Assembly (NCBI GenBank): GCA_037481835.1
Contig: JBBFKW010000006.1
Coordinates: 64,001 to 128,000 of the forward strand
DNA: 64,000 bases
From: Desulfosoma sp.
GTDB taxonomy: Bacteria; Desulfobacterota; Syntrophobacteria; Syntrophobacterales; DSM-9756
Direction of reading: 5' to 3'
The first letter of the stretch is position 1. Each line of letters opens with the position of its first letter. The notes under the pieces are model-generated. The model did not search any database. It worked only from the letters and a program-made list of their open reading frames with translations, and was not told the DNA's origin. This document shows, piece by piece, positions 28,000-52,446 of this stretch. Made by a program: the position numbers and the translations under genes.

Positions 28000-28304
28000 C
28001 CGCCCTGTGGGGGACTTCCGGCCCCACCTCCCCCCTCAGGGACATTTCAGGCTCCCTCTCCCCCTGTTCTGGAATCTTAGACGCCCTCTGCCCCTCTAGG
28101 GAATCTCAGACTCCCTCTCCCCTCGTTGGGGAATCCTAGACGCCCTCTGCCCCTCTGGGAAATCTCAGGCTCCCTCTCCCCCCTCTGGGGAATCCTAGAC
28201 GCCCTCTGCCCCTCTGGGAAATCTCAGGCTCCCTCTCCCCCCTCTGGGGAATTTTAGGCTCCCTCTCCCCCCTCTGGGGGGAGAGGGCCGGGGTGAGGGG
28301 GGGG
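28000..28304 (-). repeat. BoxC-like repeat with a ~30-bp array
   Basis: Head at 28261-28304; alternating GAATCCTAGACG and AAATCTCAGGCT units. Confidence 0.88.
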
Positions 28305-28370
28305 CCTTTCTCCTTTACGATTCCTTCTCAACCCTGAACCCATGACCCCCGCCGGAGGACCCGGCGCGCC

Positions 28371-28520
28371 ATGATCCCCCCGAGCCGCCTCTTCGCTGCC
28401 GGGCGCCGAACCGTTTCCCGGGATCTTCCCGACTTGGGCCGGTACATCCTCATCGGCCGCCTGAACACCGTCGTCGCCTTTTTGGGCAGCCGTCACATCG
28501 CCTTCTTCAGCAGAGGGGAA
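28371..28520 (+). pseudogene. Internally deleted GtrA-family remnant, copy 1
   Basis: AGRRTVSRDLPDLGRYILIGRLNTVV|AFLGSRHIAF aligns to both termini of the GtrA at 30230. Confidence 0.7.
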
Positions 28521-28596
28521 ACTTCCGGTGAAAGCCCCTCTTCTCCTGGAAGAGCGAAGAGCGGCGGCACGGTGAGGACGCAAGGAGGGGGGATGG

Positions 28597-29320
28597 CCCC
28601 CCTCACCCTACCCTCTCCCCCCAAAGGGGGGAGAGGGTAATAAACACAGTTAGACGCAGAGCCGCTCTTAGCCCCGACCGTTGCCTCTCGCTTCCCTTTG
28701 GGGGGAGAGGGTAACAAGCACCTCTCTCCCCCCTTTGGGGGACGAGGGCAATAAACACCTCTCGCTTCCCTTTGGGGGAGAGGGGAATAAGCACATTTAA
28801 ATGTAGAGCGGATCTTAGCCCCTACCTTTCCCTCTCGCCCCAATGTGAGGAGAGGGGGATACACACAGTTAGAGGCAGAGCCGCTTTTAGCCCCGACCGT
28901 TGCCTCTCTCCCCAAGGGAGAAGAGAGGGGCAAAGTTCATTATACGTAGAGCCATTATGAGCCCCTCCCCTTCCGTCTCCCCAAAGGGGGAAAGGGAAAA
29001 AGGGTGAGGTGGTGGAGCACACTCGCGGGCGGAGAAGTCATCCTCCCTCTCCCCCTTCGGGGAATCTTGGGCTCCCTCCCCCCTTCGGGGAATTCCAGCG
29101 CCCCTCCACCCTTTGGCCGATTCCAGGCCCCCTCTCCCCTCCTTGGGAAATCTTAGACCACCTGTCCCCCCTCTGGGGATTTTTAGGCTCCCTCTCCCCC
29201 TCTTGGGAATTTTAGGCTCCCTCTGCCCCTCTGGGAAATCTTGGGCTCCCTCTCCCCCCCTTGGGGAATCTAAGACTCCCTCTCCCCCCTCTGGGGGGAG
29301 AGGGCCGGGGTGAGGGGGGG
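28597..29320. repeat. Inverted BoxC-like pair enclosing ~70-bp and ~30-bp arrays; duplicated at 50877-51535
   Basis: Forward head at 28597, reverse head at 29278; unique core CACACTCGCGGGCGGAGAAGTCATCCTCCCT shared with about 51290. Confidence 0.9.
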
Positions 29321-29349
29321 CCTCGGTCCTCCGCCTGCTTCCCGGGGGG

Positions 29350-30060
29350 TTACGGCTTGTCGGCAAAACAGTACACCGTCAAGCCTGCCAAATCGTTTCC
29401 TTCGATCACCTTCAATTCCAACAAACACAATGCCTTGAAGAGCCCATTGAGGATCGGCGGCACCTCCCCAAGCTGAGACCGGGCCGTGTCTCGGCCCGCA
29501 ATTTTCCGACCCCACCGAGCCGCGGCAGCCATGGGCAGCACGGCGGCGAAATAATAGCCGGCTTTCTTTTCCTCCAACCCGGCATCCTTGACGACACGCC
29601 TCAATCCCGAAAGCGTATAGCGCCTCCGATGCCCCAAAAAGACATCATGGCCGCTCCAAAGGCGCGGAAAAGCCGGAACGGTGATAAAAAACCGTGTTCC
29701 CCTCTTGGCCCCGCCTGCAAGGCTCCTCAAAAAGGCAAGATCGTCATCCACGTGTTCGAGCACATCCATGAGAAGCACCAAGTCCCCTTCCAGCCTGTCC
29801 ATCCCGCGCCGGTAGTGGAGGACTTTGGGCCCGATGACCTCGTCGCACTCCGACGGATAGGCGGGATCAAGGCACCAGGCCTCCCGAGCCCCCGAGTGCT
29901 CGAGAAGATAGCGGGAGAAAAAGGCCGATCCGGCCCCCATGTCCACGATCGTTTCAGGGATTTTTCCTTGAAGAAGGACCATCATGGCCCGCGCTTTGGA
30001 CCCGTAATCCCAATGGTCTTCCAATCGCCCCTCCAGCAGGCCCGTTTCTTTGACGTCCAA
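29350..30060 (-). CDS. Class I SAM-dependent methyltransferase
   Basis: IVDMGAGS, LMDVLEHV, ITVPAF, WSGHD...GHRRRYT. Confidence 0.88.
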   Translation of the reverse strand: MDVKETGLLEGRLEDHWDYGSKARAMMVLLQGKIPETIVDMGAGSAFFSRYLLEHSGAREAWCLDPAYPSECDEVIGPKVLHYRRGMDRLEGDLVLLMDVLEHVDDDLAFLRSLAGGAKRGTRFFITVPAFPRLWSGHDVFLGHRRRYTLSGLRRVVKDAGLEEKKAGYYFAAVLPMAAAARWGRKIAGRDTARSQLGEVPPILNGLFKALCLLELKVIEGNDLAGLTVYCFADKP

Positions 30061-30229: not shown

Positions 30230-30670
30230 ATGGACTTCTTGATCCGGATCGTCACCGCCGGCCGCCGATGGGCAGCACGGGACATCCCTTCCTTCAATCG
30301 ATACGTGCTCGTCGGCTTGGTCAATTCGGTCGTCGGCTACGGGGTCATCTTCGGGCTCCTCAGCCTTGGAGCAAACCCCTACCTGAGCAACGCCTCCGGT
30401 TACGCCGTGGGCATCACCGTTTCCTACATCCTGAACAAGCGCTTCAGTTTCCGATCCCGAAAACCCGACCGCACGGCCTTTCCCCTGTTCGTCGCCTCCC
30501 TCGCCGTCGCCTATCTCGCCAACCTGGCCGTGCTTTTCGCCCTGCTCCGGTGGGGCGCCGTAAACCCCTACCTGGCCCAACTTCTCGCCGGCGGGGTGTA
30601 CACCCTCGTCGGCTTCCTGGGAAGCCGATACATCGCCTTCGGGTCCAAGCACGTACAAAATGCGCCTTGA
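30230..30670 (+). CDS. GtrA-family membrane protein (putative lipid-linked sugar flippase)
   Basis: Four hydrophobic segments; RYVLVGLVNSVV, SYILNKRFSFR, FLGSRYIAF. Confidence 0.88.
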   Translation: MDFLIRIVTAGRRWAARDIPSFNRYVLVGLVNSVVGYGVIFGLLSLGANPYLSNASGYAVGITVSYILNKRFSFRSRKPDRTAFPLFVASLAVAYLANLAVLFALLRWGAVNPYLAQLLAGGVYTLVGFLGSRYIAFGSKHVQNAP

Positions 30671-30792: not shown

Positions 30793-32496
30793 TCAATCCC
30801 CCGTAAGCGTCTTCAGTCGGGATAACGCCTGGGAGATCCCCTCAGGCGCGCTGTGAGGTGATTCCCTCACAGGACTGGGCCTCAAAACCAGCCAGGGATC
30901 GTCCCAGTAAATGACGATGTGACGCCCGTCGTTAAGGATGCCCTCCAAAGCTTGGAAATACTCAGTGCGGTCAACGTTCAGAAAAGCATCGAAAGAAACG
31001 AGCATACCTTGGCGACGTGTCCGCCACTCATCCGGGTAATGGAGGTTGTGCGTGGTGGGCTGTAGATACAGGATGATATATTCAGCCTCATCAACACCTT
31101 TAGGGAAAGGGAAAACCCTTTTTACGTGAGTAAAATGTGCAGCCACGTTGCCCTGGACGGAGATGGTCGCTTCCTGCCCAATGATCTCGCGGATTGAATC
31201 CACACGAGGATCAGGCTTCAGGGTCAGACTCCAGGGCCGCCAGAGATTGAGCGACCCCGGCAAAGGAAGAGGCGCCATGATATACCCGACACCGATGTTC
31301 ACGGCCAGAATGGCCGCGGCAAAAACCCCTGGCCGCACGTTGCGAAGCATTTCGGCGTATCGCCGGCAGCCGTACACGGCGGCACAGGCCAACACCGGCA
31401 CAAGGGTGGCCGTATGGTAAGCGGCGATTCCCCTCGGCATGGGAACCGCCGAGAGCAAGTTGGCGGCCAAATCCGCACAACCCGGCAGAAGGAAAGACGG
31501 AGCGGCCAGGGGCGCTCCAAAGAACAAGAGCAAGAGTCCCATGAGATATTTCGCGCCGCCGAAATGAATGAAAACGGTCTTTAGAACAAAGGGTAATCTT
31601 TTCAGCGTCCCAAAGATTATTTCGCCGACGGAATGTCCTAGCCAACTATACCGGCTGAAGTGGCCCATTCCTTCCGAAAGCATCAAATGCCTGCCGGTGG
31701 GGGAAAATGCAGGAATGATCCGCCCGAAAACCAAAAAAATGTGGAAGGCACCGAGGGTCACCAAGACGCTCCCCCGACCCCACTCCCTCCAGCGGATACC
31801 CCACAGGATGCCGAAGCCCGCAACGCAGAGGCCGAAATGCTCCTTACATAAAAGGATCACAACGGAGCATAGCACTAACAAACCAAAGCGTTTCCTTTCC
31901 ACAGCGAGAAAACCTGCGGCGATAAAAGGAACGGCCAATGTCTCGGCATGGAACGCCCATGGGACGGCGCTCAGGACGTAAGGGTTCACGAGAACCGCAA
32001 GCCCCAGCATGGCGGCCGCGGCGCGAGAACCCAGACGAAGGAAGGCCAGGCGATAGACGGGGAGGAAGGTTACGGCCAGAGCAAAACCCTGCGCAAGAAT
32101 GAGCCATTCGGCTCTCGGGGATAAAGCGTAGATGGGGACAAAAGCGGCAAGTATGGGCATGGAATGAATGGCAAAGAAGTTGATCCCCAACGTTGTCTGG
32201 AAGAACCTTCCATGAAGAGTGCTCCACACCACGTGATCGAATAAGGCGATATCCTCGTAGTGCGTGAGGAAACTCCAATAGTACGCCAGGCCCGCAATGG
32301 AATAACCCGCAAAGAACAGAAGCACCACGCCCACAGGCACAAGGGCTTGTCTCTTCCCTCCGGAAAAAACCCAACCATGGTCGGCCGGGCACGCCGCTTC
32401 AAGATCAGGTGCCGCTTGAGTCGCTCCACGCATCGCCCACCTCTGAAAACCCTCACATTTCCTGCCACGGCTCATGGGAACAAGCCCAAAACGCAT
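30793..32496 (-). CDS. DUF2079-type multi-TM membrane protein (putative GT-C); start uncertain
   Basis: DIALFDHVVW, FAIHSMPIL, FHAETLAVP, LLCKE; looks more AT-rich than its neighbours. Confidence 0.72.
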   Translation of the reverse strand: MRFGLVPMSRGRKCEGFQRWAMRGATQAAPDLEAACPADHGWVFSGGKRQALVPVGVVLLFFAGYSIAGLAYYWSFLTHYEDIALFDHVVWSTLHGRFFQTTLGINFFAIHSMPILAAFVPIYALSPRAEWLILAQGFALAVTFLPVYRLAFLRLGSRAAAAMLGLAVLVNPYVLSAVPWAFHAETLAVPFIAAGFLAVERKRFGLLVLCSVVILLCKEHFGLCVAGFGILWGIRWREWGRGSVLVTLGAFHIFLVFGRIIPAFSPTGRHLMLSEGMGHFSRYSWLGHSVGEIIFGTLKRLPFVLKTVFIHFGGAKYLMGLLLLFFGAPLAAPSFLLPGCADLAANLLSAVPMPRGIAAYHTATLVPVLACAAVYGCRRYAEMLRNVRPGVFAAAILAVNIGVGYIMAPLPLPGSLNLWRPWSLTLKPDPRVDSIREIIGQEATISVQGNVAAHFTHVKRVFPFPKGVDEAEYIILYLQPTTHNLHYPDEWRTRRQGMLVSFDAFLNVDRTEYFQALEGILNDGRHIVIYWDDPWLVLRPSPVRESPHSAPEGISQALSRLKTLTGD

Positions 32497-32548
32497 CCAC
32501 GTTCGTTGGGCATAGCGTCGCCGTTTTGCTTTTCATTGGAACGTCGCT

Positions 32549-34111
32549 TCAAGGCGCATGGATCGGTTTGATTTCATGGCGGAGAATCAGACTTCGGAAC
32601 TTGGGAACGTCTTTCACAAGCACGGAATTGCTCTCGTCGTCGTAGACGAGGCGGAAGTCGCCCCGGGCGATGAGGAGCTGCCGGATGGGGGCGTTGCGCT
32701 CGCAGACGACGTAATCGATGCCGTAGGGGTCGAAGGCGTCCTCCCAGCCGGGCTTTCCACGGTACATGACGTCATATTCCTTCAAGAACTCGTCGCCGTA
32801 CATGTCCGCCCGACCGTCCACGAAAACCTTCTGATCCGGGTAAAATTTAAAGATCAGGTAGCCCCCGAAATGGTAGGTGTTGAAGACGCGGCCCCGGACG
32901 CCTTCCCGCTCCACGAACTCCACGGCGTCCACGGGAAGCAGGCTGTTCAGGCGGAGGGGTTCTCCCGCGGCCCACGTGGGGTAGAGACCGTAAGCCGCCA
33001 CCCCGGCGACGCCGAGGAGAATCCAGTTGAAAACGTATTCCAGGTCGCCCAGCTCCCGGCTTCCCCGACCTTTGCCCTGCTTGTAACGCTGCCAGGCGGC
33101 CTGGAGGGGGCGCAAAGGCCACGCGTCGTCAAAGCCCCGGCTGAGGCTCAGAGCGCAGTGGGAAATGAGCACCAAAGCGACCAAGGGCATGTGCCGGACG
33201 GCCTGGAAGCTCAAAAGGACCACCACCGCCGGGACGGCCAATTCCGTCACATCGGGCTTTTGCCTGTTGAAGACGAGGAAGACGACCCAAAGGGCGATGA
33301 GCCCCAGATAGCCTTTGTCCAGCAAGCCGTGAAAGTTCGGGCTCTGCCACTCGCTGATGAAATGCGTGGACGCCCACATGGCCGACACCTGAAAAGGATA
33401 GAGCCAATGCTCGATAAAATAGGGATTGATTGTGCTCGCCGCCGCCGCGGCCGCCGCGACCATCGCCAGGCGATACAGCCGCCCGCGATCCCCATGCGGG
33501 ACGGGGCCGTGGAGCCGCAAGCGCACGGCTTCGCACACCGCGAAGAGCCAGAGCAGCACAATTCCCATCATGTATCCGGCGTGGGCGTTCACCCAGGCCA
33601 CCATGAGAAGGGGGACGAGCCCCAGAAGGCGCGGTTTCCCCGCGTACTTTTCTTGAAAGAGGGCGTAAATCAAAAAAGAAAGGAAAACATAGGTCACAAG
33701 CTGGGGTCGCGGGGACACACCGACCGCCAAGTACACCATGAAGGGCAGCGAAACGAGAAGAACGGCGTTCTTGGAAGGCAGAAAGAGGCGGGCGGTTCTG
33801 CCGGCGAAAACGACGGCGGCTGCGGCAAGCCCGGCCATGAGGGCCCTGACCGCCCACGGCCCGCCCGCCCTGTGGACGAGATAAAGGATCACCTGGAAAA
33901 GCCATTCGTGGAGCACCCACGGGCTTCCCGGCCGGGTGAAGGAAAAGGGGTCCGTCTTGGGCAGCCGACCCTCGGCAAGGATGATCTCCCCGGTTTTCAG
34001 GTGCCAGTAGTAGTCGGGGTCCCGAAGGGTGCTGAAGACCGCAACCTTACCAAAAAAGACAAGAAGGCCCAGTCGGTACGTGTCCAGAATCTTCAAGAAC
34101 CGCATGTGCAT
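32549..34111 (-). CDS. Multi-TM membrane protein, putative GT-C glycosyltransferase
   Basis: DPDYYWHLKTG, DPFSFT, HEWL, RPQL, WVNAH, VFVDGRADMY. Confidence 0.65.
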   Translation of the reverse strand: MHMRFLKILDTYRLGLLVFFGKVAVFSTLRDPDYYWHLKTGEIILAEGRLPKTDPFSFTRPGSPWVLHEWLFQVILYLVHRAGGPWAVRALMAGLAAAAVVFAGRTARLFLPSKNAVLLVSLPFMVYLAVGVSPRPQLVTYVFLSFLIYALFQEKYAGKPRLLGLVPLLMVAWVNAHAGYMMGIVLLWLFAVCEAVRLRLHGPVPHGDRGRLYRLAMVAAAAAAASTINPYFIEHWLYPFQVSAMWASTHFISEWQSPNFHGLLDKGYLGLIALWVVFLVFNRQKPDVTELAVPAVVVLLSFQAVRHMPLVALVLISHCALSLSRGFDDAWPLRPLQAAWQRYKQGKGRGSRELGDLEYVFNWILLGVAGVAAYGLYPTWAAGEPLRLNSLLPVDAVEFVEREGVRGRVFNTYHFGGYLIFKFYPDQKVFVDGRADMYGDEFLKEYDVMYRGKPGWEDAFDPYGIDYVVCERNAPIRQLLIARGDFRLVYDDESNSVLVKDVPKFRSLILRHEIKPIHAP

Positions 34112-34217
34112 TTCTCCATGGGTGCGCCGTCGCTTTCTCCAATGCCCGAATCTTTTTTCCAAAAGCCCTGTGGTTCCCCGCAACAGGGCTCGGCCCGGCG
34201 GGGCCGCAAGCGCTTTC

Positions 34218-35285
34218 TCAGGGTGCCCCCTGCCTCTCATGGGCCGTAGGGGACGAAGGGGTGCGCTCCAAAAGGTCTGAAGAATGGGAATCCCGACCCG
34301 CGGCCGGGCGGTATTCCTTCACGAAATAAAGGGGGCGTCCCTTTGTTTCGTTGAAGACACGGCCCAGGTATTCGCCGATGATTCCCATGGTCACGAGTTG
34401 GACGCCTCCGAGAAAGAGAATCGTCACCATGAGCGAGGGATAGCCCGCGACGGGGTTTCCGTGGACGATCTTGTCGTAGGCGATGTACGCGGCATAGAGG
34501 AAGGCGAAAGCGGCCACGGCGAGGCCGAGGATCGTGGCCAAACGCAGGGGGGCCGTGGTGTGGGACGTGATGCCTTCCACGGCGAGGTTCCAAAGGCGCC
34601 GGTAGTTCCATTTCGTTTTTCCCGCCCATCGGGCATCCCGGCGATACCGCACTTCCTTGGCATCGAAGCCGACCCAGTGGAAAAGTCCCTTCATAAAGCG
34701 GTGGTGCTCCCGAAGGGTCTTGAGGGCGTCCACGGCCCTGCGGCTGAGCAACCGGAAATCTCCCGTGTCGGCAGGAACTTCCGTTCGCGAGGCAAGGCGC
34801 AGAACACGGTAAAAAATGTAGGCCGTCAAGCGTTTGAAAACGCCTTCGCCGTCCCGGGCGATGCGCCGGGCGTAGACCATGTCGTAGCCTTCCCGCCATC
34901 CGGCGATCAGTTCGGGGATGAGTTCGGGCGGGTCCTGAAGATCCGCGTCGATGACCACCACGGCGTCTCCCCGGGCATGGTCCAAGCCAGCCGTGAGGGC
35001 GATTTCCTTGCCGTAGTTTCGGCTGAGATCCACGATCCCCACGTGAGGGTCGGACGCCCGCAAGGCGCGCATCTTCTCCAGGGTCGGGTCCGTGCTCCCG
35101 TCGTTGACGTAAAGGATTTCGTAGGTCAAATGGATCCCCTGGAGCACTCGGGACAATCTTTCGTGAAAGGCGTCGAGGACCGCCGATTCGTTGAAGGCGG
35201 GAACGACGACCGAAAGCGTTGGGCGGGAAGAGATGCCGGAAGGATATTCTTCTCGGCCGGGGGCTGTCGGGCTGTCCATGGGCAT
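34218..35285 (-). CDS. GT2 polyprenol-phosphate glycosyltransferase (GtrB-like)
   Basis: VVVPAFNE, VNDGSTD, SRNYGKEIALTAG, IDADLQDPP, TGDFRLLSR; two C-terminal TM segments. Confidence 0.92.
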   Translation of the reverse strand: MPMDSPTAPGREEYPSGISSRPTLSVVVPAFNESAVLDAFHERLSRVLQGIHLTYEILYVNDGSTDPTLEKMRALRASDPHVGIVDLSRNYGKEIALTAGLDHARGDAVVVIDADLQDPPELIPELIAGWREGYDMVYARRIARDGEGVFKRLTAYIFYRVLRLASRTEVPADTGDFRLLSRRAVDALKTLREHHRFMKGLFHWVGFDAKEVRYRRDARWAGKTKWNYRRLWNLAVEGITSHTTAPLRLATILGLAVAAFAFLYAAYIAYDKIVHGNPVAGYPSLMVTILFLGGVQLVTMGIIGEYLGRVFNETKGRPLYFVKEYRPAAGRDSHSSDLLERTPSSPTAHERQGAP

Positions 35286-35396
35286 CTTCCAAATGTCCTC
35301 CTTGGGGAGAACCGATCTTTCTGCACGGCCGAGGGGCCTCGGCACCCAGCTCTTGGCCTAAACGGGCCGATTCTTCCCAATCGCCAGGTCCCGGCA

Positions 35397-35468
35397 GGCG
35401 GGCGTAAAGCCCGCCCCTACGAAGACAGACGGACCTGTTGAGCGGGGGTGGGGTTTATCCCCGCCCGC
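35397..35468. repeat. GTAG-type REP plus a degenerate inverted partner
   Basis: Reverse complement of 35397-35420 is GTAGGGGCGGGCTTTACGCCCGCC; GGGGTGGGGTTTATCCCCGCCC follows at about 35445. Confidence 0.6.
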
Positions 35469-35518
35469 TCATCGCAAGGAGATGAAAAGAATACAGCAAA
35501 AGAATCGCTCCATTGAGG

Positions 35519-35535
35519 AGCAAGTTCCGTACCCA
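35519..35535 (-). promoter_or_regulatory. Candidate sigma54 promoter facing the glycosylation genes
   Basis: Minus strand reads TGGGTACGGAACTTGCT (GG-N10-GC). Confidence 0.55.
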
Positions 35536-36050
35536 TGAAGGCCGCCCACTTTCTGGAGGTCTGTCGTTTTTTCAGGCCCCCCCGGAAGGGCGTTCCCGTA
35601 GGATGGCTCTTTGCGGCCCGGGCGTCAAGTTCGAGGGCCCGGAGGTTGAGCGGGTTCGGCCGTCTTCCGAAACCCCGGTGGGGCTGGGAAAGGCGGCCTG
35701 CGGGGGGAAAATCCCCCGGCCCCGCTCCGGGCTTTCCGCGGGGAAACCTGCACGGGGCAAAATAGCATGGAAGAACCGGTGGTGCCACGCTGCAAAAAAA
35801 CTGTTGACTTCCTCTTGTGGTGCCGATGTAGATTATGGGCAACTTTGCGCCTTTCGAAACGCGCACGGGGGGGTCGAGGCGCCGGCCGGAAGAACCGGCT
35901 CGGGCGCGAGTCCCCATGATTCCAACGGCAAAGGATTTCCCCTTTCCCCATGACGGTTTTCGACCCCCTGAGAACGCAGCCGGCACATCCCCCGAAAGAC
36001 CTTTCCTTCCTTAACGGGCGAAGAGCGGCCTCACCGCAAGGGCGCCCAAG

Positions 36051-36113
36051 TGTGCAACGAACCTCACACACCGATGCAAAACCCTGCACACATTTGCGCA
36101 ATGCATTGCACAC
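36051..36113. promoter_or_regulatory. Three tandem dyads, candidate enhancer-binding-protein sites
   Basis: TGTGCAACGAACCTCACACA, TGCAAAACCCTGCACA and TGCGCAATGCATTGCACA, about 180-240 bp upstream of the sigma54 site. Confidence 0.55.
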
Positions 36114-36292
36114 CCCATGGAGGAATGGTGCGCCTTGGGCCGAGCCGGCCCGGGGCGCGGGAGGTGCACGGCCCCCAGAAGGGGGCTTTCGAGTTTGGGA
36201 GGGGTGGGCATGGAGATTTTTTCGGAAGAAGGACAAAAGATTCCAATGGCTTAGGGACATGGCGGGGCTCGGAGGCCGATTGTCCCGGCGCC

Positions 36293-36309
36293 TTGGCACG
36301 GAGCTTGCT
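36293..36309 (+). promoter_or_regulatory. Sigma54 promoter of the flp/tad locus
   Basis: TTGGCACGGAGCTTGCT matches the TGGCAC-N5-TTGC consensus. Confidence 0.85.
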
Positions 36310-36378
36310 TTTGTTTCGTGCCAACGCGGTTTTGGTGCAGCAGTGCAACACCCAACAACAAATCGAAAGGAGTACGGC

Positions 36379-36555
36379 ATGGAAAGAATTAAAAGGTTTC
36401 TGAAGGACGAGGAAGGGGCCACGGCGGTGGAATATGGAATTATGGTTGCCGGCATTGCGGTGGCAATCATCGCCATCGTCTTTGCGCTCGGTGATAAGCT
36501 AAACGTACTCTTCACAAATGTGGACGCTAAAGTAGGTGACAGAGTGCCAAAATAG
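36379..36555 (+). CDS. flp: Flp family type IVb pilin 1
   Basis: FLKDEEG/ATAVEYG plus a hydrophobic helix; AAGGAG RBS. Confidence 0.93.
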   Translation: MERIKRFLKDEEGATAVEYGIMVAGIAVAIIAIVFALGDKLNVLFTNVDAKVGDRVPK

Positions 36556-36629
36556 TGGGCTTTCGGAAAACGTGTACGAGCAAATGAACAGAAATTAAGG
36601 CACCGGTCAGAAACCTATTGAATGGACCA

Positions 36630-36653
36630 TATGGGGCGGGACGCCGCCCCATA
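36630..36653 (+). other. Stable hairpin between the two pilin genes
   Basis: TATGGGGCGG-GACG-CCGCCCCATA; no U-tract. Confidence 0.6.
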
Positions 36654-36734
36654 CTCCAGTATGGGCTAAAGTTGAACCCTTAAGCGGCTCAATCGGCGAT
36701 CCGGTGCTGCGTCCTCAATGAATGAAAAGGCATC

Positions 36735-36932
36735 ATGTGTGACGTTATGCCAGCGATTTGTAAAAGACTCTCAAAGTTCCGGCACACCGAACAGGGAGCC
36801 ACCGCGCCTGAATATGCCATCATTGCCAGTAGCATTGCGGCGGCCGTTGCCCTCGCGGTGAAGGGACTGGGGACTAAAGTCAACGCTCTCTTTTCGAATT
36901 TTTACGACTTGCTCATTTCACTCATAAAATGA
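36735..36932 (+). CDS. Flp family type IVb pilin 2
   Basis: EQG/ATAPEYA plus a hydrophobic helix. Confidence 0.8.
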   Translation: MCDVMPAICKRLSKFRHTEQGATAPEYAIIASSIAAAVALAVKGLGTKVNALFSNFYDLLISLIK

Positions 36933-36971
36933 TTCTTGGGCCCGGGGTCTTGCGTGGCGGACCGACCTGAC

Positions 36972-37502: not shown

Positions 37503-37618
37503 AAAATTTTTGCTTGATTTTTCTCAGCATTATTTTGAAAAATTCCGATCAATTCCTGTGAGCCGGGTTTCACGGGTTTTCCGTTTTCTGCACCCCAAAC
37601 CGTGAAGGGGGAGTCCTC

Positions 37619-38509: not shown

Positions 38510-38547
38510 ACGGACGGAGCACAAGGCAGACAAGGGAGGGGTTAAGC

Positions 38548-41870: not shown

Positions 41871-41880
41871 TGGGATAAAG

Positions 41881-41955: not shown

Positions 41956-42004
41956 AAGGTTAAAGAAGCGGCAGGGACGGACCGATGGATAGGGTGAGGA
42001 GAAG

Positions 42005-42295: not shown

Positions 42296-42337
42296 GCGCC
42301 CCCTGACGGGCCGCGCCCGACAACATCGAGGATCCCC

Positions 42338-43486: not shown

Positions 43487-43516
43487 ATCGAAATGTTTTG
43501 AGAAAGGACACAACCC

Positions 43517-44860
<1,344 letters not shown>

Positions 44861-44891
44861 GGACAGGTTCTGTGCTTAAGGAATCGCCTTT

Positions 44892-45869
44892 ATGAGCACC
44901 TATGTGTACATCGGCGCGGCGGTCTTCGTGCTCGTCGTCGTCGTCATCGAACTGATCGCCTACGCCCTGGCCCTTTACAAGAACCCGGAACGGGGCCGGG
45001 TGCGCCGGCGCCTGAAGGTGGTGGCGATCGACGACGCGGATTCCACGGCTCCGGTGACGAGCTTGCTGAAAACCAGGGTGTTGAGCGAAATTCCGTGGCT
45101 CAACCGCATCCTCACCCGCATCCCGGGGCTGCAGAAACTGGACGCCCTCCTGGAGCAGGCGGACATCCGGCAACCCTTGGGGTTTTTCGTGCTCTTGACC
45201 TTCCTGTGCGCGGCCCTGGGCTTCCTCGTGGGGCTGCTCTTTTTCAAGGGGCGCCTTGTTCCGTGGCTTTTGGGCGGTTTGGCGCTGGTCGGGCCGTACC
45301 TTTACATCCTCATCAAGCGGGAACGGCGCATGGCCGCCTTCGAACGGCAGTTTCCCGACGCTTTGGACCTCATGGCCCGGGCCCTCAAGGCCGGCCATTC
45401 CCTGAACACGTCGTTCAAGCTCGTCGCCGACGAGTTCGACGAGCCCATCGGGCGGGAATTTGAAAAGGTCTTCGACGAGGTGAACTTCGGCGTGGGTTTG
45501 GCCGAAGCTTTGAATCGGCTGCGGGAGCGCATCATCAACCCCGATTTGGACTTTTTCGTGGTGGCCGTGGTGTTACAGCGGGAAACGGGCGGCAATCTCG
45601 CCGAAATCATCGAAAACATCGCCCGGCTCATCCGGGAGCGGTTCAAGCTCCGGGGGCAGATCAAGGCCCTGGCCGCCGAAGGGAAACTGTCGGCTCTGGT
45701 CCTGGTGCTTTTGCCCTTTTTCATGTTCCTGATCCTGCGCATCGTGAACCCCAAGTACGTGGGGCTCCTTTTTTCCGACCCCATTGGGCGGCCCATGGTC
45801 GCCGGCGCCTTGGTTCTCATGGTCCTGGGCGTCATTGTCATGAAGCGCATGATCGATATCCGCGTGTAG
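44892..45869 (+). CDS. tadB: TadB inner-membrane platform protein
   Basis: QFPDALDLMARALKAGHS; QRETGGNLAEI. Confidence 0.93.
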   Translation: MSTYVYIGAAVFVLVVVVIELIAYALALYKNPERGRVRRRLKVVAIDDADSTAPVTSLLKTRVLSEIPWLNRILTRIPGLQKLDALLEQADIRQPLGFFVLLTFLCAALGFLVGLLFFKGRLVPWLLGGLALVGPYLYILIKRERRMAAFERQFPDALDLMARALKAGHSLNTSFKLVADEFDEPIGREFEKVFDEVNFGVGLAEALNRLRERIINPDLDFFVVAVVLQRETGGNLAEIIENIARLIRERFKLRGQIKALAAEGKLSALVLVLLPFFMFLILRIVNPKYVGLLFSDPIGRPMVAGALVLMVLGVIVMKRMIDIRV

Positions 45870-45882
45870 CGAGGCCGGAGGC

Positions 45883-46863
45883 ATGCCCACGCCGAACGTT
45901 GAGGTTCTCCCATTGGTCGCCGCCGGCGCCGTCTTTCTTTTCGTCATCCTCGCCTACCTGGGTCTTTCCGCCCTGGCGGGCGCCCGGGCCGAACGCCGCC
46001 GTTTCATCGAAAAGGTGAAGGCGGGGTCGGGCTACGAGGACGAAGGGGATGAGGGCGAAGCGGAAATGCCTTCTCTCATGCGGGAACAGAAGGGCCTGGG
46101 GGCGGCGGTGGCCCGGCTCGGCGATGTGGTGGCGCCGTCGGCCCGCATGGACACCCCCACCCGGAGAAAGTTTCTCCAGGCCGGGTTTCGCAGCGAAACC
46201 GCCGTGGCCGTTTACTGGGGCATGAGGGTCCTGCTCGCGGTGGCCTTGTGCCTGGGGTTTCTCGCCCTTCGCGTGGCGGTCTTCAAGCTCATGCCTGCCG
46301 CATGGACGACGGTGATCGCCGTGCTCGCAGCGCTGGTCGGGTTCTATCTTCCGACGTTGTGGCTGGCGCTGCGCATCGCCTGGCGCCGGGAAAGGATCCA
46401 CCGGGGCCTTCCCGATGCGTTGGATCTCTTGGTGGTGTGCGTCGAAGCGGGCTTGGGCCTCGATGCCGCCCTGGCGCGGGTCGGGGACGAACTGGCCCTG
46501 ACCAACAAGGTCTTGAGCGACGAATTCAAGCTCTACGGGCTGGAACTGCGGGCGGGGAAACCCCGGCGGGAAGCGTTGAGGAACCTCAGTCTCCGAACGG
46601 ATCTTCCCGACATGAAGAGCCTCGTCACGCTCCTTATCCAGACGGACAAATTCGGGACGAGCGTGGCCCAAACTTTGAGGGTCTATGCGGATTCCATCCG
46701 CACCACGAGGCGGCAGAAGGCCGAGGAGATGGCGGCGAAGATCCCGGTGAAGCTCGTCTTCCCGCTGATACTTTTCATTCTGCCCGCTTTGTTCGTGGTC
46801 TTGGCGGGCCCGGCGGCTATCAGCATCTTCCGGGCCCTCATGCACGTTGCCGGCGGCCGCTGA
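45883..46863 (+). CDS. tadC: TadC inner-membrane platform protein
   Basis: LPDALDLLVVCVEAGLGLDAA; KLVFPLILFILP. Confidence 0.93.
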   Translation: MPTPNVEVLPLVAAGAVFLFVILAYLGLSALAGARAERRRFIEKVKAGSGYEDEGDEGEAEMPSLMREQKGLGAAVARLGDVVAPSARMDTPTRRKFLQAGFRSETAVAVYWGMRVLLAVALCLGFLALRVAVFKLMPAAWTTVIAVLAALVGFYLPTLWLALRIAWRRERIHRGLPDALDLLVVCVEAGLGLDAALARVGDELALTNKVLSDEFKLYGLELRAGKPRREALRNLSLRTDLPDMKSLVTLLIQTDKFGTSVAQTLRVYADSIRTTRRQKAEEMAAKIPVKLVFPLILFILPALFVVLAGPAAISIFRALMHVAGGR

Positions 46864-46919
46864 CGGAGGGCCCCGGCTCTGCAGGAGCCGGCATGCGGCC
46901 ACCGCCGCCGCCCCGCCGG

Positions 46920-47310
46920 TTTCCCCCCTCTCCCCCTTGAGGGGGTGGAGATCAAGCTTTCCCCTCTCCCCCTTAGCGGAGAGGCCATCGCTTTTCCCCT
47001 CTCCCCCTTGATGGAGAGGAGATCATCGTTTTTGCCCTCTTCCCCTCGAGGGGGTGGAGATCAAGCTTTCCCCTCTCCCCCTTTTGGGGAAGAGGCCATC
47101 GTTTTTTCCCCTCTCCCCCTTTAGGGGGAGAAATCAAGCTTTCCCCTCTCCCCCTTTAGGGGGAGAGGGCAGGGTGAGGGGGCAAGATCCTAAATTTTCC
47201 CCCTCTCCCTGGGGGGACGAGACCTTACTTCTTGCTCTCCCCCTTGATGGGGAAGAGGCCATCGTTTTTCCCCTCTCCCCCTTTAGGGGGAGAGGGCAGG
47301 GTGAGGGGGT
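46920..47310 (-). repeat. Two reverse BoxC-like heads with ~33-bp arrays
   Basis: Heads at about 47143 and 47270; units like CCCCTCTCCCCTT...GAGATCAAGCTTT. Confidence 0.88.
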
Positions 47311-47517
47311 GAACCACCCATGCCGTATTTTCCACCGACCATATCCCCGACGGGCGCCCCGCCCCGCCGCCGTGCGCCCATGGGATGCACGGCCCCCGCA
47401 GCGCTCAGCACCGCGCCGTTCCCGGTCCGATCTCCCGATCCGCGGGCGTCCCGTCTCCACACCGCGCCGGCCCAGGCCTTGCTGTCCCGCCTCGGCCTCA
47501 TCCCCCGCCGGTCGGGA

Positions 47518-48627
47518 ATGCTCCTTTTTTCCCTGGCGTTGGCCGCCCTGCTCTCCGGCTGCGCCACATCCGGAAACCCTCTCGCGCGCCGCTCCGAGGG
47601 CCTTGCGGCATACAAGGAGATCGTCGCCTACCACCAGAAAAAGAGCCAGGCCGAAGCCCAACCCGTCAAATCCGAAGAGGTGGATCACGAACGGTTGGGC
47701 GACGTCTATTTCGCCCAGGGCAACCTGGACCTGGCCTTCCTCCATTACGACAAGGTGCTTCGGGCTCACCCGGAAAGATTGGACATCCGCTGCAAGAAGG
47801 GCCTGGTCTATTACGCCCGCGGACTCCACCAGGAGGCGCTGGCGGAATTCCAGGAAGTCCTGAAGGCACAGCCCGACCATGGGCTGGCCAACGAAGGGGC
47901 GGGCCAGGTTTACCTCAAACTGCAAAACCATGACGCCGCCGAACGGCACCTCAAGGCGGCTCTGGCCGCCGACCCCAAGTTGTGGAAAAGCCACATGCTC
48001 CTGGGAATCCTGGCCAATCTGAAAAACCGCCCCAAGGAGGCCGCGGAATCCTTCAAGGAGGCCCTGGCCCTGAACCCCACGGCCCATTTCATCCACAACA
48101 ACTTGGGGGTCGCCTACATGCTGGCGGGCGATTACGACAAGGCGACGGCGGAGTTTCGAAAGGCTCTGGTGGATGAAGGATCCCAGAAGACCGCCCTGAA
48201 CAACATGGGCATCGCCCTGTTCCGCTTGGGGCGCCGTGCGGAAGCCCTGGACGCTTTCATTGCGGCGGGAACGGAAGCTTCCGGGTACAACAACCTGGGC
48301 GTCCTTTTCTGGGAAGAGGGCAACGTGGAAGAAGCCGTGCACTGCTTTGAAAAGGCCGTGGAACTGGATCCGGGATCCTTCACCAAGGCGGGGACCAACC
48401 TGCGCACCGCCCGGCTGCAGCTGAACCCGGCGGCGCCTTCCGCGGCGGAACCGCCGGAGACGCCCGCGCCCGCCGCCTCGGGAAAAGCCAAGGCGGCGCC
48501 CAGGGCCCGCTCCAGGGTCGAAGCCGCGGGCCCCGTCATCCGGCCCGTCCATATCGAAGAAAAGCCCCTGCCGCAGCCCGCAGCGGGCGTTTCGGTGCAG
48601 GAGCCATCCCGGGGCTCTTCGGACTAA
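47518..48627 (+). CDS. TPR lipoprotein (TadD-like); start uncertain
   Basis: LLSGC lipobox; repeated NNLG TPR motifs. Confidence 0.85.
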   Translation: MLLFSLALAALLSGCATSGNPLARRSEGLAAYKEIVAYHQKKSQAEAQPVKSEEVDHERLGDVYFAQGNLDLAFLHYDKVLRAHPERLDIRCKKGLVYYARGLHQEALAEFQEVLKAQPDHGLANEGAGQVYLKLQNHDAAERHLKAALAADPKLWKSHMLLGILANLKNRPKEAAESFKEALALNPTAHFIHNNLGVAYMLAGDYDKATAEFRKALVDEGSQKTALNNMGIALFRLGRRAEALDAFIAAGTEASGYNNLGVLFWEEGNVEEAVHCFEKAVELDPGSFTKAGTNLRTARLQLNPAAPSAAEPPETPAPAASGKAKAAPRARSRVEAAGPVIRPVHIEEKPLPQPAAGVSVQEPSRGSSD

Positions 48628-48762
48628 CCCCGGCGGCAGGCGCCGCCTTGCCGCCTCCCGGCGCCGGACGGGGCCTACCCGAGAGCCATGATCGTTCGGG
48701 GGAAAGACTCGGGTGAGGCGGCACCGGCCTCACCTGAAAAGGCAACGTCACAGGCATCGCTC

Positions 48763-48800
48763 CCTCTTCCCCTTTGGGGGAGAGGGCTGGGGTGAGGAGG
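48763..48800 (-). repeat. Solo BoxC-like repeat abutting the tadE start
   Basis: CCCTCTTCCCCTTTGGGGGAGAGGGCTGGGGTGAGGAGG. Confidence 0.85.
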
Positions 48801-48808
48801 TCAAAGAC

Positions 48809-49297
48809 ATGGAACGGCAGCCCAGGTTCATCACCATGAAACCCGGCCCCGCTTTCCTTCGCCGCCGCGACGGCGCCTCAGCCGTGGAATTCGCCATCGT
48901 GCTTCCGCTTCTGCTCATTCTCGTTTTTGGGATCATCGAATTCAGCATCGCCCTCTACGACAAGGCGGTCATCACCAACGCCAGCCGGGAAGGCGCCCGC
49001 GCCGGCATCTTATGGGACATCAACCCTAGAACTCTGCAGAGCATCACGAATATTGTCACCGCGCGGGTCAATGACTACTGCTCAGGACGGTTGATCACCT
49101 TCGGGTCCAGCAATACGGCGACGATTCAAGTCAGCATCGATCAAACGGCAGGCGGCGACCCTTCGAAAATCGACTCCGGGGATCTTCTGACGGTGACCGT
49201 CGACTACAATTACGGCTTCCTTGTCATTCCCAATTTCATCACCTCTATCACCGGCCCGCTGCAGCTTAGGGCGACAACAATTATGCGGCTGGAATGA
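48809..49297 (+). CDS. tadE: TadE-like pseudopilin
   Basis: RDG/ASAVEFAIVLP; ASREGARAG. Confidence 0.9.
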   Translation: MERQPRFITMKPGPAFLRRRDGASAVEFAIVLPLLLILVFGIIEFSIALYDKAVITNASREGARAGILWDINPRTLQSITNIVTARVNDYCSGRLITFGSSNTATIQVSIDQTAGGDPSKIDSGDLLTVTVDYNYGFLVIPNFITSITGPLQLRATTIMRLE

Positions 49298-49311
49298 GGG
49301 GGGAGGTTCCC

Positions 49312-50580
49312 ATGAATGACGACAGACGACATTTCGAGGAATATCGAGCCGGGACGGGCAGCGTGGCCGTCATCGTTGCCGTCTGCATCGCCATGCTCAT
49401 CGGTTTCGGCGCCCTGGCGGTGGATATCGGGCATCTTTTCATGGCCAAGAACGAACTCCAAAACGCCGCCGACGCGGGAGCCCTCGCCGGGGCCCGAGTT
49501 TTGTACAATGACAACGGGACGATCAACGCCGGTGCCAATCAAGTCGCCTATGACACAGCGACGGCCAACAAGAGTGAAAAACAGCCGGTCGAAGTCATCG
49601 CCGGATTGGATAGCAATACGGGTGACATCCAAAGAGGACATTGGAACCCACTGACACGGACATTCACCCCTAATGCCTCATTGGACCCCCCGGATCTTTC
49701 CGATCGAACAGACGAAGAGATTCACAACGATGTCAACGTCATTGATGCCGTGCGCGTCCGAACCCGCCGGGAGGCCACCCCAATCGTGGCCTTTCTCGCC
49801 CGAATCTTTGGCTACGAAGGGTTCACGTTGAGCGCGGAAGCCGTTGCCTGGTGCGGGCCTCCCGGACCTTTGCCGGCTGAGTCCGTAAATCAAATCATAG
49901 CCATCTGCGCGCAGAGCATCAAAGTTAACGATCGATACAGTTGCAATATCGGCCGAATGATCAACAGCGGATCCCAACAGAGCTCACACAATACCGCCGG
50001 ATGGACGGATTTCCTGCAAAACGAAGAATGTAACGGTGTGAACGCAAATGATTTGAAAGCCCTGCTTCAGGGGTGTAAACCGACAAACAAGACTCCCATT
50101 TATCTAGGCAAGGACATGGAAACGGGTGGTGGTGCCGACGCGAGCGTCTTCAAAGCTTTCCGAGACTGCTGGATCGCGGCGAGCGATAACAGAACGAAGC
50201 CTTGGAAATTGGCTCTTCCGGTGATCGATTGTCCGAGCAACAACGTCGCTAATTGCTCGGAAGTGAGGGGAGCCGTTTACGTGGACGTGGTTTGGGTTAC
50301 AGACGTCGGAGAAGACCCAAAGTACAAAGACGCGCCCAGAAAAATGGCCGGAGTTCCCCCTTATTATTCCGCCTTTGACAACTCTACAGTAGAGGACGGC
50401 AAGACTCGTTGGAACAACTTCGTGAACCACTTTGACTTGAAAAATGTGGATAATCAACCGGCACCCTACGACAAGATGTCCATCTACTTCCTTCCCGACT
50501 GTACCGTCAATGAACCCATCGGGGGCACAGGAACGGAGTACTTCGGAGTTAAGGCGAAGATCCCTGTGCTCGTAAAATGA
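49312..50580 (+). CDS. TadG-like Cys-rich pilus tip protein
   Basis: G/SVAVIVAVC, LAVDIG, ELQNAADAGALAGA. Confidence 0.85.
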   Translation: MNDDRRHFEEYRAGTGSVAVIVAVCIAMLIGFGALAVDIGHLFMAKNELQNAADAGALAGARVLYNDNGTINAGANQVAYDTATANKSEKQPVEVIAGLDSNTGDIQRGHWNPLTRTFTPNASLDPPDLSDRTDEEIHNDVNVIDAVRVRTRREATPIVAFLARIFGYEGFTLSAEAVAWCGPPGPLPAESVNQIIAICAQSIKVNDRYSCNIGRMINSGSQQSSHNTAGWTDFLQNEECNGVNANDLKALLQGCKPTNKTPIYLGKDMETGGGADASVFKAFRDCWIAASDNRTKPWKLALPVIDCPSNNVANCSEVRGAVYVDVVWVTDVGEDPKYKDAPRKMAGVPPYYSAFDNSTVEDGKTRWNNFVNHFDLKNVDNQPAPYDKMSIYFLPDCTVNEPIGGTGTEYFGVKAKIPVLVK

Positions 50581-50604
50581 AGACTAAGACTTCATGGCGT
50601 ATCG

Positions 50605-50633
50605 AAGCCCGGGACGCGCCCCCGGGCTTTTTT
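50605..50633 (+). terminator. Intrinsic terminator of the tad locus
   Basis: AAGCCCGGG-N7-CCCGGGCTT followed by TTTT. Confidence 0.8.
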
Positions 50634-50876
50634 GGGCTCCCGGCCGTGGCCGGCAATCTTGTCGACCTCGGAGGAGAGCGGCGGGCGTGGTTTGCGAAAC
50701 GCCCGAGGGCTGCAAAGTTTTCAGCCGGCGCCAAGGCCGCCCGCTTCTTCCATGAGAACGATCTTGACGGGTTTCGCGCATTTTTCACGGGCCCTCCTTT
50801 GACCCGCCGTATAAGAGCACTTGGGAGCAAGGCCGGACGAGACGAGGCGGTGCTTGGGAAGTCGTTTGCCGTTTCG

Positions 50877-52446
50877 CCCCCCCCTCACCCCGCCCTCTCC
50901 CCCCAAAGGGGGGAGAGGGGGATGAGTTCAAATATCCGTAGAGTGGTTCTTAGCCCCTACCGTTCCTCTCTGCCAAAGGGGTGAGAGGGGGATACACACA
51001 GTTCGACGCAGAGCTGCTCCTAGCCCCGACCGTTGCCTCTCGCCTCCTTTGGGGGGAGAGGGGAATAAACACATTTAAACGTAGAGCGGATCTTAGCCCC
51101 TACCTTTCCCTCTCGCCCCAATGTGGGGAAAGGGGGATTGTTAGACGCAGAGCCGCTCTTCATCCTGACCGTTGCCTCTCTCCCCAAGGGAGGAGAGAGG
51201 GGTAAAGTTCATTATACGTAGAGCCATTATGAGCCCCTCCCCTTCCGTCTCCCCAAAGGGGGAAAGGGAAAAGGGTGAGGCGGTGAAGCACACTCGCGGG
51301 CGGAGAAGTCATCCTCCCTTTCCGCCTTCGGGGAATTCCAGCGCCCCTCCTCCCTTTGGGCCATTCCAGACTCTCTCTCCCCCTCTAAAGAATTTAAGGC
51401 TCCTTCTCGCCCCCTTGGGGAATTTCAGACGCCCTCTCCCCTCCTTGGGAAATCTTAGGCTCCCTCTCCCCCCTCTGGAGAATTTCAGGCTCCCTCTCCC
51501 CCCTCTGGGGGGAGAGGGCCGGGGTGAGGGGGGGCCTCATTCCTCCGCCTGCTTCCCGGGGGGTTACGGCCTGTCGGCGGAACAGTACACCGTCAAGCCT
51601 GCCAAGGCGATTCCAGGCTCCCTCTCCCCGTTGGGGAATCCTAGACCCCCTCGGCCCCTCTGCGAAATCTTAGACACCTTCTGCCCCTCTGGGAAATCTT
51701 AGGCTCCCTCTCCCCCCTTTGGGGGGAGAGGGCCGGGGTGAGGGGGGCCTTCCTCCTTTACGATTCCTTCTCAACCCTGAACCCATGCCCCCCGCCGGAG
51801 GACCCCGCGCGCCATGATCCCCCCGAGCCGCCTCTTCGCTGCCGGACGCCGAACCGTTTCCCGGGATCTTCCCGACTTGGGCCGGGACCTCCTCGTCGGC
51901 TGCCTGAACACCGTCGTCGGCTTTGTGGGGAGCCGTCACATCGCCTTCTTCAGCAGCAGGGAAAACTTCCGGTGAAAGCCCCCTCTTTTGCTGGAAGAGC
52001 GAGGAGCGGCGGCACGGTGTGGGCGCAAGGAGGGGGGATGGCCCCCCTCACCCTGCCCTCTCCCCCCTTTGGGGGGAGAGGGGAAAAGGGCGGGTATGGG
52101 CACGGCCCCGCGGGGGGAGGGGTGCGTACCCTGGCAGGAGGTGAGCCTCCGGGTGAGAAGGGGTGTGCCCCCGGCTGAGGAGGTGAGCGTCCGGGTGAGG
52201 AGGGGTGCGCCCCCGGAGAAGGATGGGCCGGGGGGTTAGATGTCGAAGTAGAGCATGAACTCGTCGGGGTGAGGGTGCAAGGAGGGGGGATGGCCCCCCT
52301 CACCCTGCCCTCTCCCCCCTTTGGGGGGAGAGGGGAAAAATGGCGAGCATGCACACCGCCCCGCGGGGGGAGAGGGGGAAAGGGCGGGCATGGGCACGGC
52401 CCCGCGGGCAGGAGGGGTGCGCCCCCGGAAAGGGATGGGCCGGGGG
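50877..52446. repeat. Composite repeat region: five BoxC-like heads, arrays, a permuted copy of 28110-29391 and a glnA 3' duplicate
   Basis: Direct sequence matches described in the findings. Confidence 0.9.
51814..51960 (+). pseudogene. Internally deleted GtrA-family remnant, copy 2
   Basis: Close match to 28371-28520. Confidence 0.65.

Follow-up and report, generated by a model that had tools for sequence, protein, structure and literature searches.

The 26.4 kb of DNA that separate trpA from glnA in a Desulfosoma sp. genome hold a block of glycosylation and Tad/Flp pilus genes and, on either side of it, two copies of a ~1.3-kb repeat whose parts stand in circularly permuted order. This repeat pair, which lies within a 64,000-nt stretch of contig JBBFKW010000006.1 (here called the window, whose own numbering is used throughout), is the subject of this analysis. 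Left of the repeats lie a gene for a MauG-type peroxidase and, further left, the trp operon; right of them is glnA (52447-53859, minus strand), followed by glnD, nadE and an NtrC-like gene (gene families here and below are Pfam assignments). Between the repeats, a methyltransferase gene (Methyltransf_23; 29350-30060, minus strand) is followed by an intact gtrA (30236-30670, plus strand, assigned by Pfam and congener alignment), by a DUF2079 membrane protein gene, a 563-aa open reading frame (ORF) without family and a GT2 glycosyltransferase gene (30793-35345, minus strand), and then by a complete Tad/Flp set (36394-50580, plus strand: flp, cpaA, cpaB, cpaC secretin, tadZ, cpaF, tadB, tadC, a TPR gene, tadE and tadG), in which Flp_Fap, Peptidase_A24, RcpC, Secretin, AAA_31/ParA, T2SSE, two T2SSF, TadE and Tad/Tad_C are all present. 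The 563-aa ORF is one of two of that length that overlap fully on opposite strands (32549-34240, minus; 32558-34249, plus), and neither has a Pfam match.

A sequence-only reading of the window had described a block of ~1.3 kb that recurs 23 kb away in circularly permuted order, and alignment bears this out, with coordinates that prove correct to within a few bases. Comparison of locus 1 (27950-29500) with locus 2 (50750-52600) by blastn gives three long plus/plus matches: segment A (28166-28637 = 51614-52082; 91.6% identity over 474 nt, E 0), block B (28758-29235 = 51036-51509; 85.5% over 484 nt, E 2e-142), and the end of B with the methyltransferase tail (29167-29391 = 51379-51605; 88.2% over 228 nt). 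All matches are direct; A precedes B at locus 1 and follows it at locus 2, and the copies are offset by 23,445 nt for A and 22,214-22,280 nt for B. The 17-mer GTTGGGGAATCCTAGAC, put forward as diagnostic of both loci, is present at exactly two places in the window (28125 and 51630), with 0 copies expected from 100 shuffles. A search of the whole genome (3.63 Mb, 38 contigs) with the A body, the B middle, the methyltransferase tail or the glnA tail yields two full-length matches in each case, both in the window, which answers the concern that A and B might occur independently at many other loci. A 30-bp array query gives 44 high-scoring segment pairs (HSPs), every one on this contig; the only dispersed piece is a short hairpin element, here called the head (65 HSPs on 10 contigs). 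A 1471-bp query from locus 1 finds only head-sized matches (≤~55 nt) in 6 of 30 relatives and none in the three congeners. Because the two-copy pieces are unique to the window and relatives hold only head-sized matches, the A/B repeats are not a matter of generic repeat similarity.

Both loci are built from the same pieces, joined through heads, which are 41-bp hairpin elements with near-identical copies of 41-45 bp. Locus 1 begins 3' of mauG with a 30/59-bp array of half-head units that contains the first 17-mer (27998-28260, plus strand). It continues with a 'reverse head' whose tail lies to the right (28261-28303, plus strand; hairpin and third block GGGGTGAGGGG), segment A1 (28305-28596, plus strand) and a 'forward head' whose tail lies to the left (28597-28637, minus strand), which forms both the end of A1 and the start of B1 and is the proposed exchange site. 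Block B1 (28638-29320, plus strand) comprises 37/72-bp hairpin units, a unique middle (~28990-29040), a 29-30-bp array and a terminal head (29278-29316), and the duplicated stretch beyond it, tail t (29321-29391, minus strand), consists of a linker and the last 42 nt of the methyltransferase gene. Locus 2 opens with a forward head (50877-50919, minus strand) and runs through block B2 (50920-51535, plus strand; 73-bp units, unique middle, 30-bp array and a head at 51492-51530) and t' (51536-51605, minus strand), a linker and truncated copy of the methyltransferase tail that meets an array unit at 51597-51606. A 29-30-bp array with the second 17-mer (51606-51705, plus strand), a reverse head (51706-51747, plus strand), segment A2 (51748-52041, plus strand) and another forward head (52042-52082, minus strand) complete it. 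Beyond lies a tandem duplication of ~252 bp (52036-52491, minus strand) that takes in a head, a G-rich spacer and the last 35 nt of glnA; the copied glnA tail is at 52237-52271, the true end is at 52447-52491, and the joint reads GCAA-GGAGG at 52271/52272. Between trpA and mauG, a further array with 27-30-bp units ends in a head of the same kind (array 26054-26426, plus strand; head 26384-26422).

Segment A is an internally deleted gtrA-like pseudogene, because its ORF (from 28371) matches both ends of GtrA and lacks the middle: the matched residues of the neighbouring 206-aa GtrA-like ORF, 66-97 (E 1e-9) and 178-197 (E 5e-5), are the start and the end of GtrA. Identity of A to the intact gtrA of the window, or to that of the congener G002, is only 47-50%, and A is probably an older or foreign gtrA paralog. 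As read from the alignment, 7 of 8 differences between A1 and A2 inside the ORF change residues (6 residues altered), which fits neutral decay. No short ORF in A or in locus 2 has a Pfam match. Block B is non-coding, each of its 37/72-bp units carrying a degenerate hairpin, and the stretch 29321-29391 reappears at locus 2 as a gene stump joined to an array unit. The sequence-only reading had laid out these pieces correctly; it had recognised neither the gtrA pseudogene in A nor the known triplex-type repeat in the head. A search of 25800-53000 against Rfam returned sub-threshold chance matches only. A and B were rejected as a miniature inverted-repeat transposable element, with no target-site duplication visible at the inverted heads, and the arrays were rejected as CRISPR, as they have no unique spacers.

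The head has the make-up of the intrastrand-triplex motifs known as BoxC, PIT and TMECO, the triplex itself being predicted. It consists of a 12-bp hairpin followed by a near-mirror copy of the hairpin's G arm. The consensus given by Holder et al. 2015 (PMC4666352) is CCCTCNCCC-N3-6-GGGNGAGGG-N3-GGGNGAGGG, and a TMECO type B example from the same paper, CCCTCTCCCTGTGGGAGAGGGCCGGGGTGAGGGC, has the three blocks of the head in the same order, including the CCG second loop (CCCTCTCCC...GGGAGAGGG CCG GGGTGAGGG). Like the elements described in that source, heads are intergenic, lie on both strands and occupy loci that differ between close relatives; their stems are 10-12 bp long, compared with 9 bp in TMECO (PMC4666352). 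A regular-expression search of both strands for CCCTCNCCC, GGGNGAGGG and GGGNGAGGG in order, with relaxed spacers (first 3-12 nt, second 2-4 nt), finds 53 matches in the genome, and 24 of these fall in the 64-kb window, which is 1.8% of the genome. Only 7 heads of the genome, 2 of them in the window, fit the strict published spacing (N3-6/N3); the others have a stem 1-3 bp longer. The heads of the window are divided evenly between strands (12 plus, 12 minus), and all 24 lie between ORFs with Pfam matches, one of them (50882-50919) overlapping the end of a family-less 135-aa ORF. Folded as DNA, and considering the Watson-Crick hairpin only, they form 12-14-bp stems with 3-nt loops at -17 to -18 kcal/mol. 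Two heads, at 52056-52082 and 52308-52334, have a left tail but a TTT loop, and the other left-tailed heads with 12-bp stems in the genome have AAA-type loops; the TTT form seems to reflect a loop that was flipped or an exchange within the palindrome.

Heads also seed satellites. Array units comprise the head's left arm, its loop and its first four G's, fold no better than shuffled sequences and make up at least 12 separate head-seeded arrays in the window. To judge from the triplex and hairpin potential of the motif and from what the arrays contain, such satellites suggest that replication forks may stall and restart at the motif. Loci with a triplex motif are rearranged more often between Escherichia coli strains than control loci, by a mechanism that Holder et al. 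2015 (PMC4666352) call unclear. Tandem half-motif arrays and the exact ends of a permuted 1.3-kb duplication are seen here, and neither was found in the consulted parts of that paper, whose supplements may hold like examples; a search of the literature, not exhaustive, found no description of permuted duplications at triplex motifs. Further arrays lie at 22535-22924, 46925-47168, 41390-41862 and 60549-60816, with periods of 36/79, 35/73, 31 and 42-43 bp; their units consist of part of the head hairpin and ~20 nt, and they have no unique spacers and hence are not CRISPR. A second head-bounded duplication occupies 13903-15558, in the spacer after a RecD2-like gene, where a 300-nt unit occurs twice, 783 nt apart and 96% identical; the same spacer (13903-16202) holds a third, partial copy of the unit at 16067-16202 and 42-bp head-seeded arrays between copies.

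The ends of the repeated pieces fall on heads. By alignment, the homology of A runs on the right as far as the final base of the forward head hairpin (28637 / 52082), beyond which locus 1 continues into B and locus 2 into glnA-side sequence, and that of B begins with the first base of a forward head (28597 / 50878). At locus 1 a single head thus doubles as the end of A and the start of B; locus 2 has one at either end, and no other sequence is present at both ends of the copy. The copy therefore amounts to one unit plus 41 bp. The only new joint is that between the methyltransferase tail and an array unit at 51597-51606, where ...GCCTGCCAA passes directly into GGCGATTCCAGG... with imperfect microhomology of 5-9 nt. 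Substitution divergence is the same in both parts, at 17/280 (6.1%) in the A body and 15/243 (6.2%) in the B middle and tail (Fisher p = 1.0), as expected from one copy event. These features argue, on balance, for a copy made in a single event. At least two independent local duplications, one of head-B-tail and one of array-head-A-head, might instead have arisen through slippage during replication or a switch of template where forks had stalled, with the permuted order a mere accident. Small duplications are indeed frequent in the window, with its many separate head-seeded arrays, the 252-bp glnA-tail unit and the 783-bp unit of 13903-15558. The pieces at locus 2, however, abut exactly (51605/51606), share one source head and have diverged equally, so that two events would need the same landing place and the same time, and we regard such an origin as quite improbable.

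The origin that we somewhat favour is one permuted copy made through a circular or tandem form and exchanged at a head. A 1.28-kb stretch of locus 1 would have been copied once, beginning in an array unit near 28110, taking in A with its gtrA pseudogene, the head (28597-28637) and B, and ending 42 nt into the methyltransferase gene. Its ends would have been joined at the 5-9-nt microhomology into a circle or tandem dimer, which would then have exchanged head against head with a head located between tadG and glnA, leaving the rotated order (B and tail, then array and A) with a head at each end. One event would account for all junctions and for the equal divergence with only two joins, namely the end-to-end joint and the head-against-head exchange. 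The scar would be the same from a circle, from a tandem dimer with looping out and from serial template switching. At the glnA end, the 252-bp tandem duplication would be a later, microhomology-mediated event, as it is bounded by a 12/13-nt match between the A2 end and the glnA coding sequence. A run of 13 nt that ends A, GGTG.GGG.GCAA, had been considered as a vestige of glnA, which would have made locus 2 the original site of A; this was dropped because the 12/13-nt match explains the 252-bp duplication as its cause. The sequence-only reading had offered a circle integrated at a forward head and, alternatively, nested direct repeats that bound a deletable unit, and these do not exclude each other. 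Integration of a circle fits every junction, with heads at both ends, one new joint and equal divergence, although no circle joint has been seen. The sequence itself shows a pair of nested direct repeats, A1[B1 ... B2]A2, around a 21.5-kb glycosylation and Tad pilus interval, which such repeats could loop out; the loss of 23.4 kb would proceed by the host's general recombination, no recombinase gene being nearby, and events between A copies or between B copies can be ordinary homologous recombination.

Sequencing runs, which place the organism in hot-spring samples, bear on both the structure and its stability. Six runs hold part of 45000-54000, and four of these (X1-X4) were compared as k=31 contigs over 34001-54000; word depth and missing contig cover were not counted as evidence of absence or of the share of cells. 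Contigs of X1, which may be the assembly's own source sample, tile 34001-54000 at 100% identity, and a 241-nt, 100% identical contig (51509-51747) bridges the joint between tail and array. An apparent X1 joint running from 51605 back to 34001 is not real; it reflects a 12-kb contig whose end extends beyond the compared stretch into locus 1 and also aligns with the copy of the tail. X2, from another study, reproduces 34001-50921 with 0-1 differences per contig. Threading of an extra unit, in tandem at locus 1 or from a second strain, through identical heads to the glnA side would make locus 2 an artefact of assembly. Heads are near-identical 41-45-bp repeats at which independent k=31 contigs break, and in X1 the word depth of contigs specific to locus 2 (21.5) is about half that of their flanks (42-45), as is that of an array contig inside the interval (17), a depth here taken as a property of GC-rich repeats. 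The two copies differ by 6-15%, however, and so are not collapsed or duplicated reads; the joint between tail and array is found among independently built contigs of X1; on either side of locus 2, the heads differ from the head of locus 1 in tail and loop; and in X4 both a hybrid whose right half is A2-type and a glnA side of 100% identity are present. An artefact is accordingly judged highly improbable.

X4 holds a natural recombinant. Its 336-nt contig over 51720-52054 has 11 other letters and 1 gap relative to the window, being A1-type at 11 of 11 left sites (51752-51930) and A2-type from 51957 on (6/6 substitutions and 2/2 indels), while the X4 contigs over 52058-54000 show 0 differences. 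It is a recombinant of A1 and A2, not an ancestral single copy, because the 17 substitutions show a single clean switch; one contig thus supports recombination of A1 and A2 in nature. The simplest product of a crossover between A1 and A2 would be the loss of the 23.4 kb between them, with a hybrid left beside glnA. The idea of nested repeats as a deletable unit has its sole direct support in this hybrid, with gene conversion as the alternative. Depth in X4 is 0 in 9 of 25 bins over 34001-50675 and ≤1.85 in 14 more; higher bins are those of cpaF (44006-44672; 23.5) and an array (46674-47340; 9.21), and the glnA side stands at 6-16. This pattern fits loss of the interval without being proof of it, missing contig cover being what it is. 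In X2 and X3, contigs of the interval have depths of ~19 and ~5, compared with 60-73 and 14-26 for glnA contigs, which carry ~2% variant letters; this hints at co-occurring strains without the interval, word depth not being a share of cells.

Comparison with relatives shows how variable the site is. In all three congeners (glnA 95-98% identical in amino acids), the trpA end (window 26033) is followed by the glnA end (window ~52440), with a gap of 169 nt in G001, ~1.2 kb in G002 and ~1.9 kb in G003, as opposed to 26.4 kb here, and the content of this spacer differs in each of the four species. The sequence-only reading had expected that relatives might join mauG directly to glnA; because they join trpA to it instead, mauG too belongs to the lineage-specific DNA, which amounts to 26.4 kb. 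At E 1e-20, mauG has no match in the 5 relatives searched; at E 1e-10 the methyltransferase has none in 5 of 5 relatives. It is also without a match in all 8 of the family's genomes that were searched, and its best match elsewhere in the order is 42% over 116 residues. No methyltransferase, CpaF or MauG match occurs in the three congeners. CpaF is matched only in G006 among the relatives searched, at 70% identity and in a Tad locus far from glnA, and a CpaF query of genome contigs reaches at best 73%, in other phyla, so that no donor emerges. Among metagenome contigs, the methyltransferase has relatives only at ≤53% identity and no strain variants. Of 48 long metagenome loci, 43 have a GT2 gene immediately upstream of the methyltransferase relative (44-53% identity) and on the same strand; here DUF2079, the 563-aa ORF and gtrA separate the two. 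The G002 spacer holds an intact gtrA in the same orientation, with 68% amino acid and 71.5% DNA identity to the gtrA at 30236-30670, which is probably its resident ortholog. As this intact gtrA resembles that of G002 and A reaches only 47-50%, the region would be a mosaic. Other head-bearing spacers are also longer here than in congeners: 13503-16340 corresponds to 400 nt in G003, 20981-21886 to 312 nt and 22490-23298 to 139 nt. Upstream of its gtrA, G002 has a palindromic repeat of its own (GGGGCGGACCGATGTGTCCGCCCC-like, two good copies; L011 ~13400-13700), and the same site in G003 (L012 ~12690-13850) is taken up by an ORF that consists of many nearly identical repeats (IDETNNRIDAVRQELT-like) and apparently encodes a coiled-coil protein. 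Spacer repeats seem to be particular to each species.

These comparisons also bear on a Campbell-type gain of the whole 23.4-kb segment. A circle from a related strain, with its own array-head-A-head (474 bp), would have crossed over with a resident copy beside glnA, A1 and A2 would be donor and recipient alleles, B1 and B2 an older duplication in the incoming DNA, and the X4 hybrid the empty site or a precise excision product. Such a gain would leave the interval flanked by direct repeats of the crossover segment, as it is, and would yield exactly the hybrid found, with A1 on the left and A2 on the right; the glnA side of X4, identical to the window despite the 6% difference between A1 and A2, is easily understood if that difference predates insertion, and the interval is missing in congeners. 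The equal divergence of B1/B2 and A1/A2 would, however, be a coincidence, the truncated methyltransferase tail fused to the array needs a separate illegitimate event, and the resemblance of the intact gtrA to the G002 ortholog at the same site would make at least part of the interval resident. Such a gain is unlikely.

Several points weigh against a single permuted copy exchanged at a head. No contig or read holds the circle joint. Tyrosine recombinases (PF00589) have 6 matches in the genome and 0 on this contig (C6), and no recombinase or transposase family is found in the 36 + 39 ORFs examined, serine recombinases not having been searched genome-wide. The exchange of head against head is inferred only, has no known enzyme and involves 41 bp, which is short for RecA. 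If the two pairs represented alleles from two strains, their divergence would likewise be equal, and the hybrid A could come from gene conversion without loss of the interval. The contig that bridges t' and the array comes from X1, which may be the assembly's own sample; k=31 contigs stop at heads, and therefore the joins of the tadG side through a head to B2 and of A2 through a head to glnA rest on the genome assembly alone. A higher-depth contig in X2 is A2-type at the 4 left sites it covers, which a single copy event neither predicts nor forbids.

The locus shares traits with several known systems. Short intergenic palindromes of the repetitive extragenic palindromic (REP) type and the mosaic elements built from them (BIME) are, like heads, clustered and serve as join points of duplications; REP-mediated duplications were reportedly described by Shyamala, Schneider and Ames in 1990, and work on REP-associated tyrosine transposases (RAYTs) is attributed to Nunvar (2010) and Ton-Hoang (2012). 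Heads do not start with the GT[AG]G tetranucleotide of REPs. The only Y1-transposase-like ORF of the genome (216 aa, 27.9 bits) is on contig C8 (139441-142740), where two copies of the 27-nt palindrome GTTGGGGTGAGCGAAGCGAACCCCAAC lie ~400 nt from the matched part and no head is near; this may be a REP/RAYT pair unrelated to heads. In IS26 translocatable units and integron cassettes, a circle with one short site enters beside another copy of that site, which in integrons is a folded hairpin. Locus 2 has the same topology, with forward heads in direct order at 50877-50919 and 52042-52082, permuted content between them and one head (28597-28637) at the source. Unlike those systems, it has no transposase or integron integrase that could be found in or near it, and its cargo consists of non-coding leftovers without a gene.

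The interval itself invites comparison with genomic islands. Islands without a recombinase are lost from E. coli independently of RecA through short flanking direct repeats (PMC5426353); the interval is likewise an accessory block without its own recombinase, bounded by direct repeats able to delete it, but compared with those of that study, its repeats are long (~470 and ~640 bp), 6-15% diverged, nested and permuted. Absence at the same site in 3 of 3 congeners (trpA-glnA ≤1.9 kb) is a trait shared with integrase-driven islands. An integrase-driven island, an integrative and conjugative element or a prophage finds no tyrosine recombinase on the contig, and nothing marks an integrase-type insertion site, with 0 tRNA genes in the window and a duplicated glnA tail that lies 211 bp from the true one and not at the far border. 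The Tad/Flp locus, a 'widespread colonization island' as it is said to have been named by Planet et al. in 2003, is represented by a full set from flp to tadG and is patchy among relatives, as expected of that island; unlike it, the set is joined here to a GT2, DUF2079, GtrA and methyltransferase module in the trpA-glnA spacer.

A pseudogene, a gene stump and triplex-motif satellites make up the repeat, for which one permuted copy made at a head is the best reading; its copies now stand as nested direct repeats on either side of a strain-variable pilus and glycosylation block. Repeat-mediated loss of islands and instability at triplex motifs are of known kinds; the new detail here lies in a permuted copy bounded by heads, in arrays of half motifs and in break points resolved to the base. 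Hundreds of bacterial genomes contain GC-rich repeats of the triplex type, and these show a statistical association with rearranged loci (Holder et al. 2015, PMC4666352). This locus supplies exact break points at the foot of a hairpin, a microhomology joint, half-motif arrays and a natural recombinant, which make the mechanism testable. A bolder and doubtful proposal is that the 41-bp heads are true exchange sites, at which hairpin or triplex structure, and not an enzyme encoded by an element, would let circles or looped-out segments leave and enter. If that were so, the motif would move neighbouring DNA about in the manner of cassettes, much as happens at integron attC hairpins or with IS26 units, but with no recombinase belonging to it; the half-motif arrays would be what forks left behind on stalling and restarting within the motif; and the locus would show at single-base resolution how widespread repeats cause the instability reported in 2015. 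For the organism, the repeats bracket the only Tad adhesion-pilus locus found in the genus among the genomes searched, and by recombining they would turn genes for attachment and surface glycosylation on or off at the level of strains, with no mobile-element gene involved.

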